Positions 1,960 to 62,981 of a DNA stretch of 64,000 bases are shown here, piece by piece (positions within the stretch are counted from its first letter, which is position 1; every line of letters begins with the position of its first letter). The translations under genes were made by a program, and so were the position numbers. The DNA comes from Vicinamibacterales bacterium. GTDB lineage: Bacteria; Acidobacteriota; Vicinamibacteria; Vicinamibacterales; CAVVIG01. The DNA lies in contig DASREL010000107.1 in assembly GCA_035652075.1 (NCBI GenBank), positions 12,385 to 76,384 of the forward strand, read 5' to 3'. Below the pieces are notes generated by a model, which was given only the letters and a program-made list of their open reading frames with translations, was not told the DNA's origin and did no database searches.

Positions 1960-2876
1960 CGCAGCGTGTTGCGGTCGTAGGCGTCGGCCACCTCGGTCGT
2001 CACCACGCCCGGATCCTGGCGTCGCTGCCGGGTGTCGAGCTGGTGGCCGTCGTCGACACCAACCGGGCGCGCGCCGAGGAGATCGCGGCGGCGAGCCGGA
2101 CTCGGGCGCTGTTCGATACGAAGGATCTGCACGACCGCGTGGACGCCGTCACGATCGCGGTGCCGACCGAGCAGCATGCGGTCATCGCGACGCCGTTTCT
2201 CGCCGCGGGCGTTGGCGTCCTCGTCGAGAAACCGATGACCCGAACGCTCGCCGAAGCAGACGCCATGATTGCCGCGGCGGCGAAGGGCGGCGCGATACTC
2301 GCGGTCGGCCAGACGGAGCGGTTCAACCCCGCTGTGGATGCGGCGCGACCGCTGCTGACCGATCCGCGCTTCATCGAAGTCCATCGCCTCGGCACATTCC
2401 CCGAGCGGAGCCTCGACATCGACGTCGTCTTCGACCTGATGATTCACGACATCGACGTCGTGCTCTCGCTCGTCAATTCGGAGATCGAGTCGATCGACGC
2501 CGTTGGCGTCCCGGTGCTCACCGGCCGCGTCGACATCGCGAACGCGCGCGTGCGCTTCGCGAACGGCTGCATCGCGAACCTCACGGCGAGCCGCATCAGC
2601 CGCGATCGCGTGCGCAAGATCCGGTTCTTCCAGCCGTCCGCGTACGTGTCCATCGACTACGCCGCGCAGAAGGTGGAGCGATATCAGCTGGTGAAGGGCA
2701 CCGGGCCCAAACCCTCGATCGAAGGCGGAGATGTCGCGGTCGCGAACGAAGAGCCGCTCAAGCGCGAGCTAGAGGATTTCGTGGATGCGGTCGCCACCAG
2801 GCGTGCGCCGCGGGTTGATGGGGCGCAGGGGCGGCGAGCGCTGGCCCTCGCGCAACAAATTACGGATAAGATGTGA
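1956..2876 (+). CDS. Gfo/Idh/MocA family oxidoreductase
   Basis: N-terminal Rossmann motif [13 protein letters not shown]. Length and C-terminal domain are typical of the family. ATGA overlap with lpxI. Confidence 0.8.
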
Positions 2877-2880
2877 ACTC

Positions 2881-2966
2881 CACGAAACACACGAAAACAC
2901 GAAACGCACGAAACACTCTTTGTACAAAAGACCTTTCGTGGGCTTCGTGCTTTCGTGGCTTTCGTG
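2881..2966. repeat. Heptamer-array hairpin: CACGAAA x4 followed by TTTCGTG x4
   Basis: CACGAAA starts at 2881, 2890, 2898 and 2907. TTTCGTG/CTTCGTG starts at 2934, 2943, 2951 and 2960. Both arms show spacings of 9, 8, 9. The apex is CTTTGTACAAAAG. Confidence 0.9.
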
Positions 2967-2975
2967 GCCAAGCCC

Positions 2976-4418
2976 ATGTACCAAGACCTGTCTGATTTCT
3001 TGGCGGATCTCGACCGCCGCAAGCTGCTCGCGCGCATCACCGATCCCGTCAGCCCCAATCTCGAGATCGCCGCGGTCACCGATCGCGTCTGCAAGATGCC
3101 TGGCGGCGGACCGGCGCTGCTGTTCGACGCGCCGACCGGCTACGACATCCCCGTTGCCTCGAACGTGTACGGCTCGCTGGAGCGCATGTGTCTCGCGCTG
3201 GGCGTGAAGGCGCTGGACGATCTCGCATCCGAGATCGACGAGTTGATGACGCCGCAGATGCCCGAAGGGATCATGGACGCGCTGAAGATGCTGCCGATGG
3301 TCGGCCGCCTGCGCGATCTGATGCCGAAGACGGTGAAGGATGCGCCCTGTCAGGAAGTCGTCGACAAGAACGCGCCCCTCGACTCGCTGCCGATCCTGAA
3401 ATGCTGGCCCGAGGACGGCGGGAAATACATCACGTTCCCGCTCGTGTTCACCAAAGATCCCGAAACCGGCATGCGCAACATCGGCACGTATCGCATGCAG
3501 GTGTACGACGGACGCTCGACGGGGATGCACTGGCAGCGTCACAAGGGCGGCGCGCAGCACTATCGCGTCGCCGAGCGCCTCGGGAAGCGACTCGACGTCG
3601 CGGTGGCGCTCAGCGCCGAACCGGCGTTGCCGTACTGCGCGACGGCGCCGATGCCGGAGGGACTCGACGAGCTGTTGCTCGGTGGATTCCTGTCGCGGAA
3701 GCGGATCGAGATGGTGAAGTGCGTCACCGTGGATCTCGAGGTCCCGGCGAGTTCGCACTTCGTCCTCGAGGGTTACGTCGAGCCGGGCGAACGCCGGCGC
3801 GAAGGGCCGTTCGGCGATCACACCGGCCTCTACTCGCAGCCCGACGACTTCCCGGTGTTCCACCTGACGTGCATCACGCGTCGGAAAAAGCCCACGTACC
3901 TGACGACGGTCGTCGGCGTGCCGCCGATGGAGGATTACTACCTCGGGCTGGCGAGCGAGCGGATCTTTCTGCCGATGATCAAGAAAACGCTGCCCGAGAT
4001 CGTCGACATGCATTTTCCAGCCGAGGGCATCTTCCACAATCTCGTGATCGTGTCGATCGACAAGCGGTATCCCGGTCACGCGCGCAAGATCATGAACGCG
4101 TTCTGGGGACTCGGTCAGCTGATGTTCTCGAAAACGATCATCGTCGTCGACAAGGATGTCGACGTCCACAATCTGAGCCAGGTCGCGTGGATCGTCGGCA
4201 CGCACTACGACCCGCTCCGCGACATCCAGATGACCAAAGGGCCGGTCGACGACCTCGACGATGCGGCGGATTTGCCGGCGTATGGAGGGAAGATGGGCGT
4301 CGACGCGACGAAGAAGTGGGCGAGCGAAGGGTACACGCGCAATTGGCCGGCTCGGGTCTCGACCACCGAAGCCGCCGGCCGCCGCGCCGCCGAAATCCTC
4401 TCTCGCCTGCGTATGTAG
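2976..4418 (+). CDS. UbiD-family decarboxylase (menaquinone-pathway type)
   Basis: MYQDLSDFLADLDRRKLLARI start, NVYGS, and GTYRMQV...HWQRHKGG motifs of UbiD. I prefer ATG 2976 over the track start at 2955, which lies inside the repeat. Confidence 0.85.
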   Translation: MYQDLSDFLADLDRRKLLARITDPVSPNLEIAAVTDRVCKMPGGGPALLFDAPTGYDIPVASNVYGSLERMCLALGVKALDDLASEIDELMTPQMPEGIMDALKMLPMVGRLRDLMPKTVKDAPCQEVVDKNAPLDSLPILKCWPEDGGKYITFPLVFTKDPETGMRNIGTYRMQVYDGRSTGMHWQRHKGGAQHYRVAERLGKRLDVAVALSAEPALPYCATAPMPEGLDELLLGGFLSRKRIEMVKCVTVDLEVPASSHFVLEGYVEPGERRREGPFGDHTGLYSQPDDFPVFHLTCITRRKKPTYLTTVVGVPPMEDYYLGLASERIFLPMIKKTLPEIVDMHFPAEGIFHNLVIVSIDKRYPGHARKIMNAFWGLGQLMFSKTIIVVDKDVDVHNLSQVAWIVGTHYDPLRDIQMTKGPVDDLDDAADLPAYGGKMGVDATKKWASEGYTRNWPARVSTTEAAGRRAAEILSRLRM

Positions 4419-4428
4419 TATTCGGCGT

Positions 4429-4935
4429 TCAGCCGGACCCGAACACGATCGTGTCGTGCTCGCCGGCCTCCGCAACCTGACCGGTCGCGACCGCGCGCAC
4501 GACGCCCCACAGGCGCACTAATCGACTCGACGGCACGTCCCAGTAATCCACGCGGTCGATCGTCACGGTAAAGATCGCGCTGTCCGGATCGTCGGCACCT
4601 TTCGGAAACCACGCGCGATACGTCGGGTTCCACATCTCATGCATCCGCGCGACATCGTGCGTCACCGAGGCGCGGCCGCTGACCGAGACGTAGCGATCGC
4701 CCTTGTCGCTGATGAAGGTGACGTTGACGCGCGGATCGCGGTGGACGTCGGTGGTCTTCTGTGACGAGAGGTGAGTGAGGAACACGAGCGAGGCATCCCG
4801 CTCGACGCGCTCCAGCAGCATCGGCCTCGCATGCAGCGCATCGTCGGTCGCGACGGTGGTGACCATCGCGACCGGGATGCCGTCGATCAGCCGCCGCAAC
4901 TCAGCGACTGCGCGATCCTGATCGCTTTGAACCAC
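4429..4935 (-). CDS. Pyridoxamine 5'-phosphate oxidase-like / general stress protein 26 family
   Basis: AELRRLIDGIPVAMVTTV...ALHARPM...VTFISDKGDRYVSVSG pattern of the GSP26/PNPOx-like fold. The start is set at in-frame GTG 4935. The longer track ORF would read through the upstream gene. Confidence 0.7.
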   Translation of the reverse strand: MVQSDQDRAVAELRRLIDGIPVAMVTTVATDDALHARPMLLERVERDASLVFLTHLSSQKTTDVHRDPRVNVTFISDKGDRYVSVSGRASVTHDVARMHEMWNPTYRAWFPKGADDPDSAIFTVTIDRVDYWDVPSSRLVRLWGVVRAVATGQVAEAGEHDTIVFGSG

Positions 4936-5587
4936 GTGAACCTTTTGAACCTCTTGAACCTCTTGAACCCCTTGAACCTGTATCGCTCGCCTGCGCCGGC
5001 ATGAACCGCCGCACGGCACCGCCGACGGTCTGGCCGACGAGCTGTGCGCCGCGCTGCAGCACGTCCATCGTCTTCAGCGTCTGGTCGTGCCATTCTTTCG
5101 ACGCCGCACGGTTGACGCCGCCCTCGGCGATCGCGGTCAATTTCTTGTCGGCGTTCTTCTCGTCCTTCAGGTTTTGTTCGAGCAGCTTCGCGACCTGTTT
5201 CTCGCCAAGGACGCTGGCGTACGTGCGGACGGTGCCGTAGGTGGCGATCTCGTAGTGCTCGACCTTTTGCGCGGCGGTGATCAGCATCGCATCGAGAAGC
5301 GCGCCAGGCTCGCCGCTTTCCATCAGCTCCTGGCCTTCTTCGAGCAGTCCTTCCATCGCCTCGCACGTCTTGCCCGATGCATCCTCTTTGAGCGCCTTCA
5401 GCGCCTGGCTGACGCGGCGTTCGTGCGTCTTGGTCTCCGCGAGATGTTTGCGAAACGCCGACTGCAGCTCCTTGCGCGAGGCCTTCTCGGCCATCATCGG
5501 CAACGCTTCGATGAGCTGCTGTTCAGCGTTCAATAAATCGTTCAGTTCCTCGACAAGATGTTCACGGAGTGACGCGACTGATGCCAT
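4901..5587 (-). CDS. DUF892 / YciE-YciF ferritin-like stress protein with a Gly-Ser-Arg repeat tail
   Basis: MASVASLREHLVEELNDLLNAEQQLIEALPMMAEKA and KVEHYEIATYGT motifs. GGAGG lies 7 nt upstream of ATG 5587. The tail GSRGSRGSRGSKGSRGSK is encoded by the 9-nt array. Confidence 0.8.
   Translation of the reverse strand: MASVASLREHLVEELNDLLNAEQQLIEALPMMAEKASRKELQSAFRKHLAETKTHERRVSQALKALKEDASGKTCEAMEGLLEEGQELMESGEPGALLDAMLITAAQKVEHYEIATYGTVRTYASVLGEKQVAKLLEQNLKDEKNADKKLTAIAEGGVNRAASKEWHDQTLKTMDVLQRGAQLVGQTVGGAVRRFMPAQASDTGSRGSRGSRGSKGSRGSKRSGSRSR
4926..4979. repeat. 9-nt tandem array (TTGAACCYN x6)
   Basis: tttgaacca cgtgaacct tttgaacct cttgaacct cttgaaccc cttgaacct. Direct repeats only. Confidence 0.9.
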
Positions 5588-5620
5588 CTCTGGACCTCCA
5601 GACGCTTTTGTGCACAATGA

Positions 5621-6094
5621 ATGCCACACAAGAGATGGTGCGTGGTGCGTAGTGCGGTGTGCGTGATGGCATTGTGCGCGGTTGCGTGTGGTGGGCCCGA
5701 CCGCGCGATTGGGGCGCGGCTCGCCTCGCCGGCGAAATTGACGTCAGAAGAAATTGCGCAGACGCTGCAGGCCGTGGGGCGCGCGATGCGCGGACGTCAG
5801 CCGCGGGTGAAGCAGGGCGCGGTTACGCGTCCGCTCGACGAGCGTGAACGCGCGCAGGTGTTCGACGTCCTGGCCGATGCGCGCGGACTCGAAGACGTCG
5901 GCATCAAGCAGAACGACGGCGTCACTGCGCGCGGACTCCGCGTGCCCGCCACGTCACCGCAATCGGAGATCGAAGCCACCGGCACCCTGTGGATTGACGT
6001 CAACACGCTACTCCCGCGCCGATACGACTTCGCGTACGCGATGCCGGGTTTCGGCGATTACACGCTGGACCTCACTTTCGAAAACACACCATGA
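5621..6094 (+). CDS. Hypothetical lipoprotein/secreted protein
   Basis: Hydrophobic N-terminus with a lipobox-like LCAVAC. GC3-rich frame. ATGA coupling to the next gene. No family recognised. Confidence 0.5.
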   Translation: MPHKRWCVVRSAVCVMALCAVACGGPDRAIGARLASPAKLTSEEIAQTLQAVGRAMRGRQPRVKQGAVTRPLDERERAQVFDVLADARGLEDVGIKQNDGVTARGLRVPATSPQSEIEATGTLWIDVNTLLPRRYDFAYAMPGFGDYTLDLTFENTP

Positions 6095-7041
6095 CAACAC
6101 GCTGGATTCCGCTCGCCGCTGTGGCCGTTGCCGTTTCCGTCTCAGTTGCAGTTGGCAGGGGTCAATCGCAACCGACGTCCTCTCACACGTTCAAAGAGAT
6201 CGCGCCTGGTGTGTACAGCGCCATCGGCAGCAGCACGTCGAACGCCGGATCGAATTCGGCGGTGATCGTCAATCAAGACGACGTGGTGATCGTCGATTCG
6301 CATATGACGCCCGACGCCGGACGCGCGTTGCTGCAGGACATCAAGACGATCACGAACAAGCCGGTGCGGTTCTTGATCAACACACATTTCCACTACGACC
6401 ACACCGACGGCAACCAGGCGTTTCCCAAGCCGATCGACATCATCGGCACCGAGTACACGCGCGCGCGGCTGAGCGCGCCGGACTACATGAAGAAGGGGAT
6501 GCTCGGGAATCTGTTGGCCGGCCAGAACACGTTGGCGCCGCAGTTGAAAGACCTGACGCCGATCGCGCCCAACGTCACGCTCGACGAGCGCATGACGCTG
6601 TGGCGCGGCGATCGCGAGATCCGGTTGCTGTATCTCGGTCGCGGCCACACCGGCGGCGACGTGGTCGTCTATTTGCCGAAAGAGAAAGTGCTGTGCACCG
6701 GAGATCTGCTCGTCAACCAAATCGCCAACTTGATCGACGGGTTCGTCGACGTCTGGCCGGACACACTCGAGAAGTTGAAACCCGTCGACTTCACCGACGT
6801 GATCCCAGGCCACGGCGAACCCTTCAAAGGCAAAGAGCGGATCGACTGGTTCCAGGCGTACCTGCGCGATCTCTGGAAGCAGGCCACGGCGCTGCACGAT
6901 AAGAAGGTTCCAGCCGCCGACGCGGCGAAGCAAATCGACATGTCCGCGCACAAAGCGCAGTACGCGAGCATCAACGGTCCAGGCGTCAACCCGGCCTACG
7001 TGTCACGTATGTATGAGGTGATGGAAAAGCGCGCGGAATAG
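6091..7041 (+). CDS. MBL-fold metallo-hydrolase, secreted
   Basis: Signal-like N-terminus. HFHYDHTDGN (HxHxDH) and GHG/HGEP metal ligands. Confidence 0.85.
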   Translation: MTTRWIPLAAVAVAVSVSVAVGRGQSQPTSSHTFKEIAPGVYSAIGSSTSNAGSNSAVIVNQDDVVIVDSHMTPDAGRALLQDIKTITNKPVRFLINTHFHYDHTDGNQAFPKPIDIIGTEYTRARLSAPDYMKKGMLGNLLAGQNTLAPQLKDLTPIAPNVTLDERMTLWRGDREIRLLYLGRGHTGGDVVVYLPKEKVLCTGDLLVNQIANLIDGFVDVWPDTLEKLKPVDFTDVIPGHGEPFKGKERIDWFQAYLRDLWKQATALHDKKVPAADAAKQIDMSAHKAQYASINGPGVNPAYVSRMYEVMEKRAE

Positions 7042-7052
7042 TCGTTGCATTC

Positions 7053-10462: not shown

Positions 10463-11670
10463 TCCGATACCGCGCCGCCTGGGTCCTGCCGATCAGCGAG
10501 CCGCCGATTCGTGACGGTTGGATCGCGATCGATCGCGGCCGCGTGATCGCCACCGGACGCCGCTCGGCAAACACCAGCGAGGCCGAAATCGATCTCGGAT
10601 ACGTGGCGGTGATGCCCGGTCTCGTCAACGCGCACACCCATCTCGAGCTGTCGCACATGCGCGACGAGGTGCCGCCCGCACCCGCCTTCGTCAGTTGGAT
10701 TCGCGGCGTCATGGAGGCGCGGCGCAAGCGGCCCGATCCGATGTCGACGGAAATCCTCGACGGCATCGACATTGGGATCGCGGAAGCGATCGCGACCGGG
10801 ACCGCGGTCGTCGGCGACATCAGCAACACGCTCGCGACGTTCGCGCCCTTGAGCCGCAGTCCCCTTGCCGGCGTCGTCTTCTACGAGTTGATTCGCTTCA
10901 ACGCGGCGGACCCGCAGGCGGTGGTGGAGCAGGCCGCCGACGCGATCGCGAAGCTACCGGCCACCGATCGTGTCCGCGCGAGCCTTGCCGCGCATGCGCC
11001 GTATTCGGTCGCGCCGCTGATGTTTCGCGCGATTCGCGAAGCGGTCGACCGCGATCCGTTCGCGCCGACGAGCGTGCACCTGTCCGAGTCGCAGGAAGAA
11101 GTGGAGTTCATACGAACCGGCGGCGGCCCGTGGCGCGCGCTGCTCGAAGCCATCGGCTCCTGGGATCCGAAGTGGGTGCCGCCGGGCGGATCCCCGGTCC
11201 AGTTCCTGGACGACTGCGGATTCCTCGACGGACGCGTGCTGGCCGTCCACGGCGTGCAGATGTCGGGGGCGGACCTCGAACGGCTGGCGAAGAAGGACGT
11301 GACGCTCGTCACCTGTCCGCGCAGCAACGGCCACACGGGCGCTGGCGCGCCGCCGATCGCCGATTTCTATCGCTCAGGCGTGAAAGTCGCCGTCGGGACC
11401 GACAGCCTCGCCAGCACACCTGACTTGAACGTCTTTGCCGAGGTCGCGACGATGCGTGCGTTGGCGCCGGGAGTGCCAGCAGCGGCGCTCCTCGAGAGCG
11501 CGACGATCGTCGGCGCGCGGGCGCTCGGCTTCGACGCCGATTACGGCACGATCGACGCGGGGAAGCGGGCGCGGCTGCTCGCGGTCGACATCCCGATCGA
11601 GGTCGATGATGTGGAAGAATATTTGGTGAGCGGGATAGAGCAGCGGCAGGTGCGATGGATAGACGGATAG
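10459..11670 (+). CDS. Amidohydrolase-superfamily deaminase (candidate aminodeoxyfutalosine deaminase)
   Basis: TTG start gives MIRYRAAWVLP...MPGLVNAHTHLELS (HxH metal motif), then HLSES and TDSLAS. TTGA overlap with the preceding gene. The specific function is inferred from context. Confidence 0.7.
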   Translation: MIRYRAAWVLPISEPPIRDGWIAIDRGRVIATGRRSANTSEAEIDLGYVAVMPGLVNAHTHLELSHMRDEVPPAPAFVSWIRGVMEARRKRPDPMSTEILDGIDIGIAEAIATGTAVVGDISNTLATFAPLSRSPLAGVVFYELIRFNAADPQAVVEQAADAIAKLPATDRVRASLAAHAPYSVAPLMFRAIREAVDRDPFAPTSVHLSESQEEVEFIRTGGGPWRALLEAIGSWDPKWVPPGGSPVQFLDDCGFLDGRVLAVHGVQMSGADLERLAKKDVTLVTCPRSNGHTGAGAPPIADFYRSGVKVAVGTDSLASTPDLNVFAEVATMRALAPGVPAAALLESATIVGARALGFDADYGTIDAGKRARLLAVDIPIEVDDVEEYLVSGIEQRQVRWIDG

Positions 11671-11681
11671 ACGAGAACAGT

Positions 11682-11822
11682 GGTGCAGAAGTGCACGGTG
11701 CACAGGTGCATGGTGCTTTGGTGCACGGTGCACCGGTGCAGGGCGCACCCGTGCACGCTGCACGCAGCACCCTGCACCCTGCACGCAGCACCCTGCACCC
11801 TGCACGCGGCACCCTGCACCAC
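11682..11822. repeat. GTGCAC-core array hairpin (about 18 units, period 7-8)
   Basis: The left half is GGTGCAN units and the right half is NTGCACC units, for example ctgcaccctgcacgcagcaccctgcaccctgcacg. It starts 12 nt after the amidohydrolase stop. Confidence 0.9.
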
Positions 11823-12665
11823 CTCCGCACGTACGCGTCTTTCGTCCGCATCAGCCACTCCGTCTTCGCGCTGCCGTTTGCGCTGGCCGGCGCGCTGCTC
11901 GCGGCCCAGCAATCGCCGTTGACGCTGCGCACGGTGATCTGGATTCTGGTCGCAATGGTTGGCGCGCGCAGTGCCGCGATGGGGTTCAACCGCCTCGTCG
12001 ACGCGCGCATCGACGCGTTGAACCCGCGGACCGCGAATCGCGAGCTGCCGCGCGGCGCGATGACCGCGCGCGAGGCGACCGCGTTCGTCACGATTGCATC
12101 CGCGGTGTTCGTCGTCGCGGCGTGGCAACTCAATCCGATCTGTTTCGCGCTGTCGCCGGTGGCGCTCGCGATCGTGTTCTGGTATTCGCTCGCGAAGCGC
12201 TACACGACATGGACGCAGCTGTTTCTCGGCCTCGCGATGGCGGTCGCGCCGGTTGGCGGATGGCTCGCGGTCGGCGGTCGCGGCGGCTGGCAGCCGTGGC
12301 TGCTCGCGCTCGCGATCGGCACGTGGGTCGGCGGGTTCGACGTTCTCTACGCCTGCCAGGATCTCGATTTCGATCGCGCGCACGGATTGCGATCCATTCC
12401 CGTCCGCTTCGGCGTGCGGCAGTCACTCGCGATTTCGCGATGCATGCACGTCGTCGCCGTCCTGTGTCTCGCAGCGCTGGGTGTCGTGACGACGCTCGGT
12501 CCGATCTACTTCGGCGGCGTCGCGATCGTCGCCGCGCTGCTGGTGTACGAGCAGTCGCTCGTCAGCGCCGAGGATCTCTCGCAGGTCAAACGGGCGTTCG
12601 ATCTGAACGGCTACGTCGGCATCCTCTACTTGCTCGTCCTCGTCGTCGCGTTATATGCACGATGA
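11751..12665 (+). CDS. UbiA-family prenyltransferase (MqnP-type)
   Basis: LRTYASFVRISHSVFALPFALAGALL and GFNRLVDARIDALNPRTANRELP (NxxxDxxxD-type motif), followed by multiple TM helices. The start is ambiguous. All in-frame ATG/GTG candidates (11655 to 11751) lie in or before the repeat. Confidence 0.8.
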   Translation: MHAARSTLHPARSTLHPARGTLHHLRTYASFVRISHSVFALPFALAGALLAAQQSPLTLRTVIWILVAMVGARSAAMGFNRLVDARIDALNPRTANRELPRGAMTAREATAFVTIASAVFVVAAWQLNPICFALSPVALAIVFWYSLAKRYTTWTQLFLGLAMAVAPVGGWLAVGGRGGWQPWLLALAIGTWVGGFDVLYACQDLDFDRAHGLRSIPVRFGVRQSLAISRCMHVVAVLCLAALGVVTTLGPIYFGGVAIVAALLVYEQSLVSAEDLSQVKRAFDLNGYVGILYLLVLVVALYAR

Positions 12666-15592: not shown

Positions 15593-16770
15593 TGTTCACG
15601 CGCGCCATCGTCATCGTCATGGACAGCGTCGGCATCGGCGAGTTGCCGGATGCGGCGGACTACGGAGATCAGGGCAGCAACACGGTCGCCAACATCGACC
15701 GTCGCGTCCCGCTGAGGGTCCCAACCCTCCGCGCGCTGGGGTTAGACCAAATCGTCAGACTGAACAGTCTGACTAAGAAGTCTGACCAAATAGTCAGACT
15801 TCCCGCGTTCGGGAAGATGGCGGAGGCGTCGGCAGGGAAAGATTCGGTCACTGGACATTGGGAGATGATGGGAATTGTCCTGGACAAGGCATTTCCGACA
15901 TTCCCTGACGGGTTTTCGAACGACGTGTTGGAAGAATTTGCCCGCCAGACGGGACGCGGTGTCCTCGGCAACAAGGCCGCTTCGGGGACCGCAATCATCG
16001 ACGAGCTCGGTCCCGAGCACATGCGGACCGGCAAGCTGATTGTCTACACGTCGGCCGACAGCGTCTTCCAAATCGCCGCGCACGAGGACATCGTGCCCGT
16101 CCCCGAGCTGTATCGCGCCTGCGAAGTCGCCTACCGCATCGTCGGCGAAGGCCTCGGGGTGGGCCGCGTCATCGCGCGACCCTTCGTCGGCGCGCCGGGC
16201 AGCTTCAAGCGGACCGCGAATCGTCACGATTACGCGCTGCCGCCGTCGGGCGAAACGTTTCTGGACCGCGCGAAGGCCGCCGGCATCCCGGTCGTCGCGA
16301 TCGGCAAGATCGAGGATCTCTTCGCGGGACGCGGGATCACGAAGGCGATCCACACGAAGAGCGACGATGACGGGATGGACAACGTCGAGCGCCAGATGGC
16401 GGAGCTGGACCGCGGGTTCATCTTCACGAACCTGGTCGACTTCGACACGCAGTACGGCCACCGCAACGACACCGAAGGCTACGCGCGCAACCTCGAACGC
16501 TTCGACGCGCGGCTCGCCGCGATCCTGCCGCGCCTGCGCCAGGACGATCTCCTCATCGTGACCGCGGACCACGGGAACGATCCGACGACGCCGAGCACCG
16601 ATCACGCGCGCGAGTATGTGCCGCTGCTCGTCACCGGCACGCGCGTGCGCGAGAATGTCGACCTCGGTATTCGCCGCACCTTCGCCGACGTCGCGCAGAC
16701 GCTGGCCGAGAACTTCGGCGTCGGCCGTCTTGCGAACGGCACCAGCTTCCTCAGTACAATCAGCGCGTGA
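15592..16770 (+). CDS. deoB: Phosphopentomutase DeoB
   Basis: VIVMDSVGIGELPDA, GKDSVTGHWEMMG, TADHGNDPT. TAGTG overlap with hfq. Confidence 0.9.
   Translation: MFTRAIVIVMDSVGIGELPDAADYGDQGSNTVANIDRRVPLRVPTLRALGLDQIVRLNSLTKKSDQIVRLPAFGKMAEASAGKDSVTGHWEMMGIVLDKAFPTFPDGFSNDVLEEFARQTGRGVLGNKAASGTAIIDELGPEHMRTGKLIVYTSADSVFQIAAHEDIVPVPELYRACEVAYRIVGEGLGVGRVIARPFVGAPGSFKRTANRHDYALPPSGETFLDRAKAAGIPVVAIGKIEDLFAGRGITKAIHTKSDDDGMDNVERQMAELDRGFIFTNLVDFDTQYGHRNDTEGYARNLERFDARLAAILPRLRQDDLLIVTADHGNDPTTPSTDHAREYVPLLVTGTRVRENVDLGIRRTFADVAQTLAENFGVGRLANGTSFLSTISA
15741..15803. repeat. Intragenic 13-nt-period array of GTCWGAC heptamers inside deoB
   Basis: gttagac(15741) gtcagac(15754) gtctgac(15767) gtctgac(15780) gtcagac(15793). 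The array is locally AT-rich and in frame, and encodes DQIVRLNSLTKKSDQIVRL. Confidence 0.9.
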
Positions 16771-24478: not shown

Positions 24479-24573
24479 GTATTGAGGATTGCGGATTGAG
24501 GATTGCGGATTGATTGTTGATTTACCCCGCCAATCGTCAATAAATCCGCAATCCGCATTCCTCAATCCGCAAT
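24479..24573. repeat. ATTGMGG array palindrome (family copy 1)
   Basis: attgagg attgcgg attgagg attgcgg attgatt gttgatt ... aataaat ccgcaat ccgcatt cctcaat ccgcaat. It fills the whole etfA-etfD spacer. Confidence 0.9.
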
Positions 24574-33496: not shown

Positions 33497-36037
33497 ATGA
33501 CCGAGTTCAAACCACAAGCCCTCGACAAGAAGTGGCAGCAGGCGTGGACTGACGCGAACGCGTTCGAAGTCCAGATCGATCCCTCGCGCGAGAAGTTCTA
33601 CACGCTCGAAATGTTCGCGTATCCGTCGGGCCACGCGCACGTCGGACACGTTCGCAATTACATCATCGGGGACGTCTGTGCGCGGACGAAGCGGATGCGC
33701 GGCTTCAACGTCCTCCATCCGTTCGGGTGGGACGCTTTCGGCCTGCCCGCCGAGAACGCCGCCATCAAGACCGGCACGCATCCCGAGGCCTCGACGCTCG
33801 CCAACATCGCCCACATGAAAGGGCAGTTGCAGCGCCTCGGCATCAGCTACGCGTGGGATCGCGAGATCGCGACCTGCCTGCCGGACTATTACAAGTTCAA
33901 CCAGTGGATTTTCCTCAAGATGTACGAGCGCGGGCTCGCCGTGCGCCGGCGCTCGACGGTCAACTGGTGTCCGAAAGACGAAACGGTCCTCGCCAACGAG
34001 CAGGTGATCGATGGAGCCTGCTGGCGCTGCGGGACGACGGTCGTCGCGCGCGAACTCGAGCAGTGGTTCTTCCGCATCACCGCATACGCCGACGAGTTGC
34101 TCCAAGGCCTCGACACGCTGAAAGAGTGGCCCGAAAAAGTCGTCGTCATGCAGCGCAACTGGATCGGCCGATCCGAAGGGGCGCGGGTCAAGTTCGCGAT
34201 TGCCGGCAGCCAGCAGCCAGCATCCGGCAGCGATGCGATCGAGGTGTTCACGACCCGTATCGACACGATCTTCGGCGCGACGTTCGTGCTGCTGGCGCCC
34301 GAGCACCCGCTGGTCGAGAGATTCGCCGCCGAAAGCAGCGATCCGAAAGGGTTCCGCGATCGCGCCGCGAAACTGCGCGCGACCGACCGCGAAGCGCGGC
34401 TGACCGGCGCGACGAAGGAAGGATTCGACACCGGACGAAAGGCCATCAACCCGTTCACGAACGAAGAGATTCCGATCTGGGTCGCCAACTTCGTGCTGGC
34501 TGAGTACGGCACCGGTGCGCTGATGGCGGTCCCCGCGCACGACGAACGCGACTTCGAATTCGCCAGGAAATTCAACCTGCCGATCCGCGTCGTCGTCACG
34601 CATGGCGACGACACGCCGGTGGCGGATTCGATGTCGATGGCGACGACCAACTACGGGACGCTTGTCAATTCGGGTCCGTGGAACGGCAAGCAGGCCCCCG
34701 CGGTGATGACCGAGATGATCCGCGACGCCGAATCGCGCGGCATCGGCAAGGGCGAGGTGCAGTACCGGTTGAAGGACTGGGGCATTTCGCGTCAGCGGTA
34801 CTGGGGCACGCCGATCCCGATGATCTACTGCGAGAAGGATGGCATCGTGCCGGTCCCGTACGCCGACCTGCCGGTGAGGCTGCCGAAGTTCGCGAGCTTC
34901 ACCGGTCGCGGCGACTCTCCGCTCGCGCAGGTGCCAGAATTCGTCAACGTCACGTGTCCAACGTGCGGCGGTCCCGCCAGGCGCGAGACCGATACGATGG
35001 ACACGTTCGTCGACTCGTCCTGGTATTTCCTGCGGTTCGCCGATCCGAAGAACAGCGAGCTGCCGTTCGATCCGGTGGCTGCCGGCTACTGGATGCCCGT
35101 CGATTTCTACAGCGGCGGCGTCGAGCACGCGATCCTGCACTTGCTGTATTCGCGGTTCTTCACGCGCGTCCTCCGCGACGTCGGCCTGGTGAACTTCGAT
35201 GAACCGTTCAAGCGACTGCTGACACAGGGGATGGTGCTGAAGAACGGCGCCGTCATGTCGAAGTCGAAAGGCAACGTCGTCGATCCCGACGACATGCTGC
35301 AGAAGTACGGCGCCGATGCGCTGCGTCTCTACGTCATGTTCGTGGCGCCGCCGGAGAAGGAAGTGGAGTGGAGCGATGCCGGCCTCGAGGGCAGCTTCCG
35401 CTTCCTCGTCCGCGTCTGGCGTATGGTCGATCACTGGTGCGAGACGATTGGCGGGGAAGGCATCCCGGCGTGCGGCGACGACTGCCTCGAGAGCGAACGC
35501 GCGCTGCGCCGGAAGACGCATCAGACGATCCAGCGCGTGACCGTTGACATCGAGGAACGGATGCACCTGAACACGGCCGTCTCGTCGCTGATGGAGCTCG
35601 TCAACGAGCTGTATGCGTTCAGCGAAACCACCGCGCACGGTGCGCCGACGAAGGCGGAGCCGGCCGCGGGACGCGTCGAGCGTCCGCAGACGATCGCGGC
35701 GCTGCGCGAAGCGATCGACGCGCTCGTCGTGATGATCTCGCCGTTCGCGCCGCACATGGCCGAAGAGCTGTGGCAGATGCTCGGTCATCCAGACACGCTG
35801 ACGAAGGCGAAGTGGCCGGCGTTCGATCCGGCGATCGCCAAGGCTGACGAAGTCGTCGTCCCGGTGCAGGTCAACGGCAAGGTGCGCGGCCGTGTCACCG
35901 CGCCCGCCGATGCGAGCGCGGATCAGCTGCGCGAGCTCGCGCTCGCCGATCCTGGCGTGCAAACGCACACGGCGGGGAAGACGGTGCTGAAGGTGCTCAT
36001 TGGGAAAGGACCCATCGTCAGTGTCGTTGTCAAATAG
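33497..36037 (+). CDS. leuS: Leucyl-tRNA synthetase
   Basis: [14 protein letters not shown] (HIGH) and VMSKSKGN (KMSKS). GAGGTGG Shine-Dalgarno sequence. Confidence 0.95.
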
Positions 36038-36608
36038 ACGTCAACCACGGAACGCACGGAACCCACGGAAACTGTTCTTGTTCTGTGCGTTCTGTGCCTT
36101 CTGTGGTTGTCTTTCGTCAGGATGCGGGTACGCGCTCGCGGGCCGTGGATCCTTCTTGCCCGCCTATATCCAGACGATCGGCGTCCCGGCGTTCACGAAC
36201 CGCACCACGGTTTTCAACCTCGAGACGCTGTTGACGACGAAGGTCCGATCGGAATTCATCGGCCGCGGCAAGTATCAGGTGCTGCCGCAGAACACCGGCG
36301 TGGACGGGCTGCTGACCGGCGAAGTAACGGCGGTGACGATTACGCCGGTCGGGTTCAATCCGAACCAGGCCAACCTCGCGACCAGTTACAGCGTCACGAT
36401 GACCGCGCGGATCGAGTTCAGGGATCTCCACGAAAACAAAGTGCTGTGGGAAAATCCTGCGGTGATGTTCCGCCAGGATTACCCGGCCACGAGCGGCGCG
36501 CCGATCGGCAACCCCGTCGCGTTCTTCCAGCAGGACGCCAGCGCGCTCGAGCGCATGACCTCCGAGTTCGCGCGGACCATCGTCAGCTCCATCCTGGAAG
36601 CTTTCTGA
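36021..36608 (+). CDS. lptE: LPS-assembly lipoprotein LptE-like
   Basis: Lipobox-like LSSGC, then [12 protein letters not shown]...IGVPAFTN. Conserved leuS-lptE-holA order. The start is uncertain (GTG 36021, TTG 36027 or TTG 36000). Confidence 0.7.
36046..36105. repeat. Heptamer-array hairpin: CACGGAA x3 followed by TTCTGTG x3, period 9
   Basis: CACGGAA at 36046, 36055 and 36064. TTCTGTG at 36081, 36090 and 36099. Confidence 0.9.
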
Positions 36609-37850: not shown

Positions 37851-37944
37851 GTAATGCGGATTGAGGATTGCGGATTGCGGATTGATTGTCGATTCCGCAA
37901 ATCACCAATAAATCCGCAATCCTCAATCCGCAATCCGCAATGAC
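37851..37944. repeat. ATTGMGG array palindrome (family copy 2)
   Basis: aatgcgg attgagg attgcgg attgcgg attgatt gtcgatt ... aataaat ccgcaat cctcaat ccgcaat ccgcaat gac. It shares the core ATTGATTGTYGATT and the end CAATAAATCCGCAAT...CCGCAATGAC with copy 1. Confidence 0.9.
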
Positions 37945-38360: not shown

Positions 38361-41015
38361 ATGCGTCGCCGCGACGTTGACGAAGAGATTCAATCGCACC
38401 TCGCGATGGCCGTTCGCGATCGGATTGCCGCCGGCGAAGATCCGGCGAGCGCCGAGCTCGCCGCCATCCGCGAATTCGGCAACGTCACGCTGACGAGCGA
38501 AGCGACCAAGTCGGTCTGGCGCCGCGGATGGGAAGTCGTCGCGGCCGACGTCTGGCAGGACGTGTGCTATGCGGCGCGGCTGCTGCGGCGCAGCCCGATG
38601 TTCTCAGGCGTCGTCGTGATGGTCCTCGGTCTCGGCATCGGCGCGAACGCCACCGTCTTTACCCTCTTCAAGGCGATCTTCCTCAAGCCGCTGCCCGGCG
38701 TCGTCGCGCCGGCCGACTTGCAGGCCATCGTCGCGCGCAGCAGCGGCGGGCGGACGGTCGGCTTGTCGTATCCCGACTACGAGTACTTGCGCGATCACCA
38801 GCACGTCTTCAGCAACGTGACCGCGTCAGGCATGAGTTCCTTCAACCTCGGCATTGGCAATCGTGCCGAACGTGTCTGGGGCGAGATGGTGACCGGCAAC
38901 TACTTCGAGATGCTCGGCGTCCGCGCCAGCCTCGGGCGGACGCTGATGCCGTCGGACAACGTCGCACCCGGACAGCATCCCGTCGCGGTGATCACCGACG
39001 GCCTGTGGCGGCGCGCGTTCAGCGCCGATCCCGCGATCGTCGGCCAGACGATCCACATCAACGCGCACCCGCTGACGGTTGTCGGCGTCCTCGAGCCGGC
39101 GTTTCACGGAACCGTCGTCAGCCTCGTGATGGATATCTTCATTCCGGCGATGGAGCAGCCGGTCATCGCCGCGGCATTCCGGCCCGTGGGCACACCGCAG
39201 GCGCCGGTCGGCACCGGAATGTTGCGGCAGCGGAACACGCAGTGGGTGATGGTGCTGGGGCGGCCAAGCCCTGGTGTGTCGCTCGCGCAGTCGGCCGCCG
39301 ACGTGCGCGTGCTCGCGGCGCAATTGGCCGCCGACAATCCGACCGCCGACTTCAGCCAACGCGCTGAAGTCCTGCCGTTGTGGCGGTCGCCGTACGGCGC
39401 GCAAACGTACTTGCTGCCGGTCGTGATCCTCCTCGGCGTGATGGGCGGCGTGATTCTGCTGATCGTGTGCGCGAACGTCGCCAACCTCGTGCTCGCCCGC
39501 GGGCTGACACGCCGTGGAGAGATCGCGGTTCGAACGGCGCTCGGCGCCGCGCGCGCACGCGTCATGCGGCTGCTGCTGATCGAAAACGTCATCCTCGCTG
39601 TTCCGGGCGCGCTCGCCGGCATCGTGCTCGCGCGGGCGCTGCTGCCGCTCGCGTCCTTCGGGTCCACGCCGATTGCGCCGATGCAGGTGGAGCTCGATCT
39701 CTCGACGGATCGGCTCGTGACGGCGTACGCGCTCGCCTTGTCGTGCGCGAGCGCGGTCGTCTTTGGATTCGTCCCGGCGTTTCGGATCTCGCGCGTGAAT
39801 CTGGCCGACGTGATGAAGGACGAGCTGTCGCCGCGCGGCGCGGGCCGCACCCGACTGCGAAGCGCGCTCGTCGTCGTGCAGCTGGCGATGTCGGTGCTGC
39901 TGCTCGTCGGGGCGGCGCTCGTCTTGCGCAGCTTGAACGCATCGCGGACGGCAAACGTCGGGTTCGATCCAAACGGCGTCGTATCGCTGTCGCTCGATCT
40001 CAAGCCGAATGGGTACGACGAGGCGCGCGGACGTGTGTTTTACCAGCAACTGCTCGACAACGTGCGCGCGATGCCGCGCGTCGAAGCCGCGACGGTGGCG
40101 GCCTACCTGCCGTTGACGCTGGTCGACGGTTCGTCGTGGAGCGTGACCGTCGAGAAATACGTACGACGCAAAGACGAAGACTTGAGCTTCCTGTACAACA
40201 TCATCTCGCCCGGGTACTTCGAAACGCTGCGCGTCGGTCTCGTGGCCGGCCGCGTGTTCGACCGCCGCGACGACACGGCGGGACCGCTCGTCGCGATCGT
40301 CAACGACACGATGGCGAAGCGATTCTGGAAGACACCGGAGGCCGCGCTCGGCCAGCGGATTCGCGTGGTCAACCAATGGCGCACGATCGTCGGCGTCGCG
40401 AAGGATCTCAAGTACGCGCGGGTGACCGAGAGCCCGCGTCCCTATTTCTATCTGCCGCAGGCACAGCAGTATTTCTCGAACATGACGCTTCAGGTACGCG
40501 CCGGCGATTCGGCCAACGACCTGATTGCACGCCTACGGCCAGTCGTGCAGGCGATGGATCCGAACCTGCCGATTCTCGAGGCGCGTCCGCTGAGCGAGCA
40601 GGTGCGCGTCGCCCTCGCCGGGTACGAGCTCGCGGCGGGCACGCTCATCGTCTTTGGTGTGATGGCGATCGGGCTCGCGGCGATCGGTTTGTACGGTCTT
40701 GTGGCCTACGCGGTTGAACAGAACCGCCACGAACTCGGCATCTGCCTCGCGCTCGGCGCATCGCGCGCCGACGTGCTGCGCCGATTCCTGGTGCGCGGCC
40801 TGCGCCTGGGGACCATCGGCGCCGCGATCGGCGTCCTCGGCGCATTTGCCACGACGCGGCTGATGTCGAGCGTTCTGTACGGGGTCAGCGCCGCCGATCC
40901 GCGTTCGTTTGCGTTTGGTGTCGCCACCGTGATGACCATCACGGTGATCGCGTCGTTCCTGCCCGCGTGGCGGGCATCGCGGACCGATCCGGTGACAGCA
41001 CTTCGAAGGCACTGA
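38361..41015 (+). CDS. ADOP-type duplicated FtsX/MacB-like ABC permease (module 2)
   Basis: Same architecture as module 1. HELGICLALGA FtsX motif near the C-terminus. No ATPase gene adjacent. Confidence 0.85.
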   Translation: MRRRDVDEEIQSHLAMAVRDRIAAGEDPASAELAAIREFGNVTLTSEATKSVWRRGWEVVAADVWQDVCYAARLLRRSPMFSGVVVMVLGLGIGANATVFTLFKAIFLKPLPGVVAPADLQAIVARSSGGRTVGLSYPDYEYLRDHQHVFSNVTASGMSSFNLGIGNRAERVWGEMVTGNYFEMLGVRASLGRTLMPSDNVAPGQHPVAVITDGLWRRAFSADPAIVGQTIHINAHPLTVVGVLEPAFHGTVVSLVMDIFIPAMEQPVIAAAFRPVGTPQAPVGTGMLRQRNTQWVMVLGRPSPGVSLAQSAADVRVLAAQLAADNPTADFSQRAEVLPLWRSPYGAQTYLLPVVILLGVMGGVILLIVCANVANLVLARGLTRRGEIAVRTALGAARARVMRLLLIENVILAVPGALAGIVLARALLPLASFGSTPIAPMQVELDLSTDRLVTAYALALSCASAVVFGFVPAFRISRVNLADVMKDELSPRGAGRTRLRSALVVVQLAMSVLLLVGAALVLRSLNASRTANVGFDPNGVVSLSLDLKPNGYDEARGRVFYQQLLDNVRAMPRVEAATVAAYLPLTLVDGSSWSVTVEKYVRRKDEDLSFLYNIISPGYFETLRVGLVAGRVFDRRDDTAGPLVAIVNDTMAKRFWKTPEAALGQRIRVVNQWRTIVGVAKDLKYARVTESPRPYFYLPQAQQYFSNMTLQVRAGDSANDLIARLRPVVQAMDPNLPILEARPLSEQVRVALAGYELAAGTLIVFGVMAIGLAAIGLYGLVAYAVEQNRHELGICLALGASRADVLRRFLVRGLRLGTIGAAIGVLGAFATTRLMSSVLYGVSAADPRSFAFGVATVMTITVIASFLPAWRASRTDPVTALRRH

Positions 41016-59443: not shown

Positions 59444-59548
59444 GTGGTGCTGAGTGCACCGTGCAGGGTGCAGCGTGCTTTCGGTGCGCGGTCCGCACGT
59501 TGCACCAGGTGCACCTTGCACGCTGCACCCTGCACTTTTGCACCGCCA
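59444..59548. repeat. GTGCAS-core array hairpin (second locus of this word)
   Basis: ggtgct gagtgcac cgtgcag ggtgcag cgtgctt ... ttgcac caggtgcac cttgcac gctgcac cctgcac ttttgcac. It lies in the kinase/rsmE divergent spacer. Confidence 0.85.
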
Positions 59549-59550
59549 CC

Positions 59551-59556
59551 TATAAT
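59551..59556 (+). promoter_or_regulatory. Perfect TATAAT hexamer 7 nt upstream of the rsmE GTG
   Basis: cacc TATAAT ccgtccc GTG. There is no Shine-Dalgarno-like sequence in between. Confidence 0.35.
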
Positions 59557-62115: not shown

Positions 62116-62913
62116 TCACGATTTTTTCAACAACAGGCCGACCCATGAATCCTCTTCGCGTTCCCACACGACCTCGGCCGCCGCGAACGCGCGGACGACC
62201 GTGTCGCGTTCGTGGGACTGCAGGCCGCTCAGGATCAAGGCGCCTCCAGACCTGACGGTGGCGAGTAGTGTCGGAGCCGATCGCTCGAGCAAGGCGCCCG
62301 TCAGATTCGCGAGGACCACGTCAGCAGGCGACAGCGCCGCCGCGCCGAGGTCGGCGACGTCGAACCGCACGTGCCGCACGTCGGGATTGAGCTCGAGGTT
62401 CTCGCGTGCCGACTGGATCGCATCCGGATCCAAATCGATCCCGATCGCGGACGCCGCGCCGAGCCGATCAGCCGCAATCGCCAGCACTCCAGAGCCTGTG
62501 CCGACGTCCAGGGCAGTCTTGCCGCCAAGATCGATCTGTTGAAGCGCGTCGAGACACAGCCTGGTCGTCGCGTGATGTCCGGTGCCGAAGCCCATCGACG
62601 GGCGGATTACGACAACGATGTCGGGATTCGGGGTTCGGGATTCGGGATTCGGAAGAACGGTGATGCGGCCAACGGTGATCGGCGCGAGGCCTTCCTGCGA
62701 TCGCCGTGCCCAGTCTTCGTCGGATACGTCGATCGGCGTAACGGCAAAACGCTGCGACAGGGAAGCGCGAGCCGCGTCGCGCGACGCCGCATCGACGAAA
62801 AACACGCGAAACCCCTCGTCGTGCCCTTCGATCGCCGTTGGAGAGAAGTCGTCGACGGCCACCAAGACAAGGTCGGACTCGCCGACCACATCCAGCGCCG
62901 GGTAATAACGCAC
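62116..62913 (-). CDS. prmA: Ribosomal protein L11 methyltransferase PrmA
   Basis: MGFGTGHHATT and LDVGTGSGVLAIAA motifs. The start is set at GTG 62913 (MRYYPALDV). The track start at 62988 would read through a 9-nt array and overlap dnaJ. Confidence 0.85.
   Translation of the reverse strand: MRYYPALDVVGESDLVLVAVDDFSPTAIEGHDEGFRVFFVDAASRDAARASLSQRFAVTPIDVSDEDWARRSQEGLAPITVGRITVLPNPESRTPNPDIVVVIRPSMGFGTGHHATTRLCLDALQQIDLGGKTALDVGTGSGVLAIAADRLGAASAIGIDLDPDAIQSARENLELNPDVRHVRFDVADLGAAALSPADVVLANLTGALLERSAPTLLATVRSGGALILSGLQSHERDTVVRAFAAAEVVWEREEDSWVGLLLKKS
62623..62650. repeat. Intragenic heptamer array GGGATTC x4 inside prmA
   Basis: gggattc ggggttc gggattc gggattc. It encodes PNPESRTPNP in a variable loop. 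Confidence 0.85.
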
Positions 62914-62981
62914 CCTAGGCACCCCAAGCACGATTGGCACCCCAGGCACCTTAGGCACCCCAGGCACCCTACGCACCCTGT
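62910..62981. repeat. 9-nt tandem array GCACCCYAG x8
   Basis: gcaccctag gcaccccaa gcacgattg gcaccccag gcaccttag gcaccccag gcaccctac gcaccctgt. It lies between the dnaJ stop and the prmA start. Confidence 0.9.

Follow-up and report, generated by a model that had tools for sequence, protein, structure and literature searches.

A mirrored heptamer array between an oxidoreductase gene and ubiD

The window analyzed here is a stretch of 64,000 nucleotides of Vicinamibacterales DNA (contig DASREL010000107.1), and the element under study is a hairpin array of 86 bases at positions 2881-2966. The array lies between an open reading frame (ORF) for a GFO/IDH/MocA oxidoreductase (1956-2876, with the stop codon ending at 2876) and an ORF for a UbiD-family decarboxylase (ATG at 2976, running to 4418), as assigned using Pfam. 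The original prediction, made from the letters alone, held that the element fills this junction from stop to start. Both boundaries were confirmed, and they were reproduced by an independent gene call on a second assembly. The element is composed of three parts:

2881..2913, plus strand: 5' arm, CACGAAA x4 at 2881, 2890, 2898 and 2907
2914..2933, unstranded: apex of the hairpin, CTTTGTACAAAAG, which holds the perfect 10-nt palindrome TTTGTACAAA
2934..2966, plus strand: 3' arm, TTTCGTG, CTTCGTG, TTTCGTG and TTTCGTG at 2934, 2943, 2951 and 2960

The unit starts, the spacings (9, 8 and 9 in both arms) and the near-palindromic apex had been predicted exactly to the base. The TTCGTG cores of the 3' arm begin at 2935, 2944, 2952 and 2961, and the spacers of the 5' arm are CA, A and CG. 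The stem is lengthened by C2880, its base lies 3 nt past the oxidoreductase stop, and it is closed by G2967 at 9 nt upstream of the ubiD ATG. In full, the junction reads ACTC-CACGAAAca-CACGAAAa-CACGAAAcg-CACGAAA-CACTCTTTGTACAAAAGACC-TTTCGTGgg-CTTCGTGc-TTTCGTGgc-TTTCGTG-GCCAAGCCC-ATG. Folded as RNA, these 99 nt form a single stem of -43.9 kcal/mol (z = -7.3), a stability reached by none of 200 shuffles; the corresponding DNA fold is -30 kcal/mol (z = -7.8). As anticipated, pairing is confined to the heptamers while the 1-2-nt spacers are bulged, with one of the five spacer bases being pairable. In an lpxI-oxidoreductase-ubiD transcript, the element would form a bulged 88-nt stem with its base between the stop and the start codon.

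Scans for an established identity returned nothing, and a known RNA family, a tRNA-derived element, a terminator and a promoter were therefore rejected. No terminator-like or promoter-like site was detected on either strand of 2700-3100, and the whole window contained no Rfam match at the gathering score and no tRNA or tmRNA. The stem lacks the U-tract of an intrinsic terminator, being followed by GCCAAGCCCAUG, and no Shine-Dalgarno-like motif was found between the 3' arm and the ubiD ATG.

Arrays are over-represented and independently assembled

Arrays were defined as the same exact hexamer occurring at least three times at a spacing of 6-14, and 200 dinucleotide-preserving shuffles were used as the control. 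In this comparison, which had been proposed along with the original prediction and was run on the 64-kb window, 21 exact-hexamer arrays were counted as opposed to 2.4 +/- 1.7 in the shuffles (∼9-fold). Arrays with at least four copies numbered 7 in the window and 0.025 in the shuffles, and strictly mirrored pairs 2 and 0. These counts rule out a chance origin.

The element is also not an artefact of assembly, because an independent metagenome contig from ENA (L001) and dozens of metagenomes carry it. L001 is 99.78% identical to the window over 8,987 bp without a gap, and its copy of the focal element differs by two single-nucleotide polymorphisms (SNPs), both at unpaired positions. Four of the 20 SNPs between the two sequences fall in or right beside two arrays that make up ∼1.7% of the sequence: two in the 99-nt focal junction and two at the end of the array at 4926.

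Turnover at the orthologous junction

Loci identified by LeuS assign the window to Vicinamibacterales (Acidobacteriota), with best LeuS identities of 81% and 78%. Oxidoreductase-ubiD junctions were collected from ∼90 Vicinamibacterales lineages on contigs encoding UbiD 77-93% identical to that of the window. An array was called present if at least two exact CACGAA/TTCGTG units lay within 200 nt upstream of ubiD, a region sufficiently covered in 77 lineages. By this measure, CACGAAR/TTCGTG arrays occupy the junction in 42 of the 77. Both arms are found in 16 of these, the 5' arm alone in 16 and the 3' arm alone in 9. The number of units per junction ranges from 2 to 7, and the spacers and the apex vary, with a TGTACA-type apex being common to the window, L113, L120, L133, L149 and L082. 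Stop-to-start distances span 1 to 271 nt, and many lineages translate the array as an HE.TK-type tail at the oxidoreductase C-terminus. About a dozen lineages have no element, and in these the two genes abut, overlap or lie 1-9 nt apart. This distribution shows that the copy at the junction is old and vertically inherited.

The lineages also differ in ways that go beyond unit number. L151 and L153 have common flanks but retain opposite arms, a sign of arm deletion; comparison of lineages suggests that the copy at the ubiD junction can lose whole arms in this way, and that it may be replaced or invaded by other families. The words TTGGTGA (L126), GGCTCT (L165, L170) and GGACACAAA (L099, L118) are found at the same site, and in L100 and L104 a CGCAGAG hairpin is nested within the CACGAAA element. 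Comparison of the orthologous junctions, one of the checks first proposed, shows two things: units vary in place, and other families stand at the site or nest there.

The most direct view of change in place comes from eight contigs of different samples that encode an identical UbiD (P0043), seven of which were compared with the eighth (L083) and found to be 99.8-99.96% identical to it over 2.4-11 kb. They differ by no multi-base indel other than a single 8-bp TTTTCGTG unit at the ubiD junction, with four units in three contigs and five units in three, from independent samples on each side. A one-unit indel among near-identical contigs demonstrates slippage in place; single units are gained and lost by replication slippage at this junction. 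Change in place, as first suggested, is thus borne out for single units, whereas a purely local origin is unlikely for words that recur at non-orthologous sites.

At the same junctions, several contigs additionally contain ordinary short GC-rich palindromes of the repetitive extragenic palindromic (REP) or terminator type (L082 3314-3420, L138 ∼6900-7050, and just upstream of ubiD in L114 and L127), such as GTCCGGCTTT..CCGGAC and GGGCGACCCCTTTCAGGGTCGCC. These genomes carry classical hairpin repeats beside the array type.

Word families recur at non-orthologous sites

A survey of 811 kb of Vicinamibacterales DNA, from which per-genome copy numbers were extrapolated, yielded 191 arrays (0.235 per kb, or ∼1 per 4 kb) and ∼48 mirrored hairpins (∼1 per 17 kb). 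Units are most often spaced by 7 (170 cases), followed by 8 (96) and 9 (75), which is not codon-like. Elements consist of a tandem 6-7-nt core with 0-3 variable spacer bases (period 7 > 8 > 9), usually followed by the inverted array, and most sit at gene junctions. The largest families by units are CACGAAR (207), ATGGCTG (75) and ATTGMGG (61), and GGACCAA, GCAGGAT, AGGGCTG, GAACTGA, CGCAGAG and GGGATTC also recur.

These families are found at non-orthologous junctions in many lineages. CACGAAR is present at the neighboring lpxI-oxidoreductase junction (L091, L141, L092, L094, L096, L102 and others) and elsewhere, ATGGCTG arrays of as many as 12 units stand between lpxA and lpxI in seven lineages, and ATTGMGG occurs at no fewer than five different junctions. 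ATTGMGG copies share inner ATTGATT/GTTGATT units and GTCATTG...CAATGAC ends, whereas CGCAGAG copies begin with AACCGCAGAG and finish with CTCCGCGGTT. Polarity is fixed by family, with the same word always in the 5' arm across the ∼48 hairpins. Presence also varies between relatives: L003 lacks both of the ATTGMGG copies found in the window (24479 and 37851) at the orthologous sites, and the ubiA junction carries GTGCAC in the window, a GAAC-type word in L091, ATTGCGG in L100, L104 and L173, CAATCGA in L126, and no gap in L084. In distant Pyrinomonadaceae loci (L014, L018, L028, L038) similar mirrored heptamer arrays are built from other words, and most Terriglobia loci have no such arrays.

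Some copies lie within genes. An alignment of 24 phosphopentomutases (DeoB) revealed a hypervariable loop after LGLDRLV, in which the RLNSLTKKSDQIVRL of the window is common to its nearest relatives and inserts of up to 30 residues or LTRLTRLTRLT are found elsewhere. In L172 (1531-1719) a CGCAGAG/CTCTGCG hairpin adds ∼30 residues in frame, and in L173 (10136-10255) (GTCTGACAC)x4 is read in frame as LTRLTRLTRLT. CGCAGAG thus occurs both in the DeoB coding loop and in intergenic positions. By analogy with the Rickettsia palindromic elements (RPEs) discussed below, this hypervariable surface loop looks like an RPE-like hot spot inside an enzyme.

The initial view that architecture is conserved and sequence is not reflects the size of a 64-kb sample, since the 811 kb collapse the words into a limited set of families. 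[quoted passage not shown] The arrays appear to behave as classical sequence-conserving dispersed repeats of REP, MITE or RPE type with slippage superimposed on them; like MITEs and RPEs, they are found at non-orthologous sites, are present in some relatives and absent from others, nest, and have in-frame coding copies. We consider it probable that the focal element belongs to CACGAAR as a resident copy, and that at least eight such families of short, non-autonomous DNA palindromes, mobile or copy-converted, populate Vicinamibacterales genomes.

Other arrays in the window

The remaining arrays identified in the window are as follows:

4926..4979, unstranded: direct array of TTGAACC x6, period 9, no hairpin
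5636..5665, unstranded: direct array of (T)GGTGCG x4, period 7, absent from the original list of loci and also present in L001
11682..11822, plus strand: mirrored array of GGTGCAC-type then GCACCCT/GCACGCA units, 21-nt super-period, RNA fold -91.5 kcal/mol
15741..15803, plus strand: GTCAGAC/GTCTGAC units forming two short hairpins, in frame in the DeoB gene
24479..24573, plus strand: ATTGMGG-family hairpin between the etfA stop (24473) and a CCG-domain gene
36046..36105, plus strand: hairpin of CACGGAA x3 / TTCTGTG x3, period 9, in the LptE signal-peptide coding region
37851..37944, unstranded: second ATTGMGG-family copy, in the divergent region between rpsT (minus) and padR (plus)
59444..59548, unstranded: hairpin of GTGCAS words (-70 kcal/mol), located where a Ser/Thr kinase gene and rsmE diverge
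62623..62650, minus strand: direct array of GGGATTC x4 (28 nt), no fold, in frame in a linker of prmA (PNPESRTPNPD)
62910..62981, minus strand: direct array of GCACCCYAG x8, period 9, spanning the dnaJ stop (62981) to the prmA start

Ten or more loci of this design, usually mirrored, had been predicted. Arrays are present at all ten coordinates given, but long mirrored hairpins (z of -5 to -7) are found at only six of them: 2881, 11682, 24479, 36046, 37851 and 59444. Of the other four, 15741 forms two short hairpins, while 4926, 62623 and 62910 are direct arrays with no real fold. Nor does each locus have its own word, as had been claimed. The copies at 24479 and 37851 are 87% identical over their full length, non-repeat center included, the hairpins at 11682 and 59444 align and share words, and CACGAAA and CACGGAA are one base apart. 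The junction-filling seen at the focal site does not extend to all loci either, with the arrays at 36046, 15741, 62623, 11682 and 4926 overlapping coding sequence.

The overlaps take several forms. Two minus-strand genes are touched by the array at 4926-4979: it covers the C-terminal tail of a DUF892 gene (4901-5629) and the GTG start (4935) of a PNPOx-like gene. That at 11682-11822 sits between an amidohydrolase stop (11670) and the conserved UbiA N-terminus and is open in the UbiA frame (ORF 11655-12665), whereas UbiA in relatives is 287-288 residues long without an array-derived extension. There is no in-frame ATG, GTG or TTG between this array and the conserved UbiA N-terminus (LRTYASFVR), and the UbiA start in the window is the GTG of the apex, with the 3' arm then translated as ARSTLHP repeats, or a non-canonical codon. 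The DeoB array (15741-15803) encodes LDQIVRLNSLTKKSDQIVRL with rare codons (TTA, AGA, ATA). The final unit of the 24479 hairpin, CCGCAATG, provides the ATG of the CCG-domain gene at 24572. Within LptE (36021-36608), the 5' arm is translated as PRN-ARN-PRK in the basic n-region and the 3' arm as FCA-FCA-FCG in the hydrophobic h-region before the lipobox Cys, giving a signal peptide ∼14 residues longer than that of L005. Relatives have other words at the LptE site (L002, L003) or no array (L005, L007), and in L002 the Shine-Dalgarno motif and the ATG lie in the loop. The PrmA region bearing GGGATTC is one that we take to be no longer than in E. coli PrmA. The neighboring array at 62910-62981 folds weakly (z = -2), and the likely prmA GTG start is within its last unit.

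The 59444 hairpin is flanked by the kinase ATG at ∼59424 (minus strand) and the rsmE GTG at 59564 (plus strand). Two -10-like hexamers bracket it, TATAAT at 59551 on the rsmE side and TATACT on the minus strand on the kinase side, and rsmE may be leaderless. At 40766-40842, near the 3' end of a MacB/FtsX-like gene (38361-41015), an inverted pair of CGCCGA words (-44 kcal/mol) was noted, which may be a coding-sequence coincidence in GC-rich DNA.

Heptamer words in viral sequence

Viral sequences from IMG/VR were searched with two of the words, and a phage origin or vector was rejected. CACGAAA x3 was found in 91 stretches, compared with 100 and at least 119 for two scrambled controls, so that its count carries no meaning. 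ATTGMGG x3, on the other hand, was present in 70 viral stretches (L265-L334, GC 0.46-0.72) as opposed to 19 and 6 for two composition-matched scrambles. These phage arrays are direct-only in 89 of 90 cases and often lie beside other heptamer arrays. Some heptamer words may thus be favored across unrelated genomes.

Many phage contigs (L175, L180, L181, L185, L188, L189, L193, L200, L203, L251 and others), a large number of them ∼37-42 kb long with a GC content of 0.41-0.69, have several copies of GATTTTRAAC-(CACGAAANN)x3. An ATG often follows this motif at a distance of 0-12 nt, and the motif, a candidate promoter, leader or regulator site, belongs to a phage-specific repeat of ∼80 nt that ends in a CAGGG...CCCTG hairpin. 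A link between it and the bacterial CACGAAR family could not be made.

Relation to described repeats

The literature searched contained no description of such repeats in Acidobacteriota. The suggestion that they belong to no described class was nevertheless too strong, as convergent inverted pairs of heptamer arrays are on record for Xanthomonas, and cyanobacteria and Beggiatoaceae also have heptamer arrays (PMC4692102, PMC4679880). The closest described relatives are the Xanthomonas GGGAATC inverted heptamer repeats and the cyanobacterial short tandemly repeated repetitive (STRR) heptamers.

The GGGAATC repeats of Xanthomonas and the GGGGA(C/T)T repeats of Nostoc (Rehm et al. 2015, PLoS One, PMC4692102) are tandem arrays spread genome-wide in non-coding DNA. 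Most lie no more than 50 bp from an ORF and between genes of the same direction, and their length and sequence vary between close species at conserved junctions. Xanthomonas has ∼185 arrays per genome with a preference for four units and no known function, and 70-75 of its array pairs per genome are convergent and inverted, forming potential stem-loops (PMC4692102). The arrays studied here likewise consist of over-represented tandem 7-nt units with a non-coding bias (21 versus 2.4, with spacing 7 the commonest), and they likewise include convergent inverted arrays (∼48 mirrored pairs, with 4+4 units in the focal element). The GGGATTC x4 array at 62623 resembles the Xanthomonas word itself. However, Xanthomonas and Nostoc have one G-rich word per genome, read as G-quadruplex-forming, whereas many unrelated words are found per genome here. 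CACGAAA, ATGGCTG, ATTGMGG and GTGCAC have no G3 tracts, and only the minor GGGATTC family could qualify as a quadruplex unit. The variable 0-3-nt spacers, in-frame coding copies, nesting and the different phylum set the present arrays further apart.

Cyanobacterial STRR heptamers were reportedly described by Mazel et al. in 1990. They resemble the present arrays in that one genome holds several heptamer words (STRR1-3). Both they and the TAACTGA repeats of Beggiatoaceae (PMC4679880) form intergenic arrays that often end at or overlap start codons, and their origin is likewise unexplained; slippage tied to the polymerase footprint has been proposed for their 7-nt preference. Unlike the elements here, they are essentially direct (one inverted set among 170 in a Beggiatoa genome and few pairs in Nostoc), they have no long mirrored hairpins, and no family-specific non-repeat parts have been reported for them. 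Similarity of words across phyla (GAACTGA/TAACTGA, TTGGTCC/TTGGTCA, GGGATTC/GGGAATC) was considered, but since a rough estimate gives ∼3 one-mismatch coincidences by chance, no conclusion was drawn from it.

REP elements are imperfect palindromes of 20-40 nt, one end of which bears the tetranucleotide GTAG or CGTC (PMC3733652). Together with their composites, the bacterial interspersed mosaic elements (BIMEs) and the REPINs, they are mobilized by RAYT (Y1) transposases (PMC3116915, PMC3733652). They share with the present elements a high copy number as intergenic palindromes, several families per genome, the lack of target-site duplications and a location between co-transcribed genes. REPINs, moreover, are pairs in inverted orientation that make up long imperfect hairpins, and processing as hairpins of single-stranded DNA has been proposed for REP-type elements. 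The focal element differs in lacking the GTAG/CGTC head, starting with ACTCCACGAAA and ending with TTTCGTGGCC and in having arms of tandem 7-9-nt units; CGTC was seen beside ATTGMGG in one orthologous copy only (L117). REPs also avoid coding sequence, and no RAYT was found in the sequence examined here. RPEs are ∼100-150-bp palindromes located between genes and in frame in housekeeping genes, where they encode surface peptides (review PMC10969869). The in-frame copies in the DeoB loop match this behavior (PMC10969869), but RPEs are not built from tandem short words and show no unit-number slippage. Finally, the hallmarks of MITEs are terminal inverted repeats together with target-site duplications, both going back to a parent insertion sequence. 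Here the whole element is an inverted repeat, and no parent insertion sequence was seen. The elements are best described as hairpin variants, in many families, of a repeat type that is known but unexplained.

How the arrays may arise

If the elements are indeed mobile or copy-converted, they would behave as non-autonomous repeats of the REP, REPIN, MITE or RPE kind. Families would reach new sites as whole units, permissive coding loops included, and be read in frame there, and the elements would probably be processed as single-stranded DNA hairpins by a putative enzyme. Any effect on expression of the ubiD operon would be incidental, either tolerated or mildly modulating.

Several observations weigh against this interpretation. 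A search for a RAYT (Y1, PF01797), a transposase or another mobilizing gene turned up none among the window genes or those tabulated for the fetched contigs. A Pfam scan covered essentially all window genes and returned housekeeping functions only; an associated RAYT or transposase would also have told against the original prediction, and on this point it held in the window. Target-site duplications were not found flanking the two window ATTGMGG copies or those of L104 and L117, and no fresh insertion with clean boundaries was seen. Contigs that are at least 99.8% identical differ in their arrays by SNPs and one-unit gain or loss only, and copy numbers per genome rest on extrapolation from the 811 kb. 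The recurrence of one word at one junction across most lineages could also be read as retention by selection. Three ORFs with coding-like composition had no Pfam match, at 41056-43518 (minus), 5621-6094 (plus) and 51780-52400 (plus); the first of these encodes 820 residues and adjoins a gene for an outer-membrane barrel of the TonB-dependent type.

A further difficulty is posed by the pattern of conservation within arrays. Although the best hexamer of an array is exact by construction, other positions match between adjacent units at 43-54%. Uniform decay to this level would need ∼30% divergence per site, and ∼2% of arrays would then keep three exact cores. In the hairpins, core positions are paired at 90% and spacer positions at 61%. 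Because the same pattern of exact cores and variable spacers is present in direct-only arrays, hairpin pairing is not its explanation, and slippage does not account for the free spacers because it copies them along with the cores. The conserved cores are explained neither by these processes nor by uniform decay or simple selfish spread, and they suggest that the core is either recognized by its sequence or written by some mechanism.

A purely in-situ origin is unlikely, although it deserves consideration. It would have a local seed expanded by slippage, with strand-switch or fold-back copying making the inverted arm and recurrent words reflecting mutational preference. The one-unit polymorphism between near-identical strains fits it, as do arrays of 2-12 units, single-arm forms and the occurrence of different words at one junction in different lineages. 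The empty ubiA junction of L084 even has GGCAATG, a possible seed, at the position of the terminal CCGCAATG of ATTGCGG-family copies; the arrays within DeoB and PrmA leave the proteins at about normal length; no mobilizing gene was found in the window or the fetched contigs; and the viral excess of ATTGMGG x3, 4-12 times commoner than its scrambles, hints at a word preference that crosses lineages. Local growth does not account, however, for the non-repeat parts and ends shared by non-orthologous ATTGMGG and CGCAGAG copies, the polarity fixed per family in all ∼48 hairpins, or the nesting of one family in another. An arm copied from its partner should, moreover, have complementary spacers, whereas spacers pair at 61% compared with 90% for the cores, and at one of five bases in the focal element.

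Less probable still is a selected mRNA structure, REP/BIME-like, that protects against 3' exonucleases or couples ubiD translation to that of the upstream gene. In the coupling version, the stem would be opened at its base by the ribosome that terminates at 2876, and the stretch 9-19 nt upstream of the ubiD AUG would become accessible. The very stable focal fold and the location of its base, 3 nt beyond the stop and 9 nt short of the start, fit this idea, as do the lack of a Shine-Dalgarno-like motif before ubiD in any lineage, the typical coupling arrangement of the element-free lineages (overlap or 1-9 nt apart) and the retention of the array in over half of lineages (42/77). Position 7 of the unit also covaries between arms, A with T and G with C (Spearman 0.54, p = 0.03, no phylogenetic correction), but such covariation is equally expected of a DNA palindrome. 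No sign was found that the structure itself is what is maintained. When both strands were folded for 35 hairpins in co-directional operons, the sense strand was more stable in 16 and the antisense strand in 19 (Wilcoxon p = 0.92), with 68 G-U pairs in the sense and 85 in the antisense folds. For the focal element, folding gives -48.4 in antisense and a weaker -40.1 in sense. At the RNA level, the earlier proposal of selection for structure alone is thus unsupported. Of the 42 array-bearing lineages, 25 have a single arm, and about a dozen lineages are element-free; members of the same families also lie in divergent promoter regions and within coding sequence, and U-tracts are lacking. The absence of greater sense-strand stability and of a U-tract, combined with the frequent loss of arms, therefore favors selfish or neutral palindromes acting at the level of DNA.

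We regard as very unlikely the proposal that the arrays are binding sites for a sequence-specific protein reading each 6-7-nt core, either on DNA (as a regulator, as a nucleoid protein or as the transposase of the element itself) or on RNA (with a cold-shock/S1-type domain contacting ∼7 nt per unit). It would account for exact cores and drifting spacers, direct-only arrays included, and perhaps for the avoidance of T in CACGAA spacers (2-10%), and heptamer-binding proteins have been speculated on for the cyanobacterial and Beggiatoa repeats (PMC4679880; bioRxiv 10.1101/2022.06.06.494920). However, at least eight unrelated cores would require equally many proteins, periods of 7-9 do not match the helical repeat of DNA, the flanking genes have unrelated housekeeping functions, and no candidate protein was identified. 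Least credence is given to a dedicated mechanism that writes arrays by reiterative copying of a short 6-7-nt template with imprecise re-alignment, comparable to telomerase making irregular repeats or to templated extension of both 3' ends at a DNA break or hairpin. Were it true, it would yield a word array followed by its inverted counterpart, with exact cores, untemplated 0-3-nt spacers and fixed polarity, and the vocabulary common to loci, lineages and perhaps phages would reflect templates or enzyme specificity rather than transposition.

Implications

The arrays also have practical consequences. They overlap start codons, signal peptides, C-terminal tails and protein loops and therefore corrupt automatic gene calls. 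LpxI, for example, is called at 321 residues in L083 (7897-8862) and at 272 in L082 (1566-2384), and oxidoreductase C-termini differ by up to ∼25 residues of translated CACGAA units. Gene calls are affected also at 4901-5629 and at the UbiA ORF (11655-12665) of the window, and annotation of the clade is systematically affected. Arrays are likely to break short-read assemblies as well, and they create lineage-specific peptide insertions in housekeeping enzymes.

Tandem heptamer repeats were reported from cyanobacteria in 1990 and from Xanthomonas in 2015, and neither their origin nor their function has found an accepted explanation. The clade studied here offers many word families side by side, mostly in mirrored hairpin form, and public soil metagenomes contain hundreds of its closely spaced lineages, such that unit gain and loss, arm deletion, replacement and nesting can be traced at a single junction. 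The birth and death of such repeats is thereby directly measurable by computation, and the puzzle lies in their exact cores, free spacers and fixed polarity.

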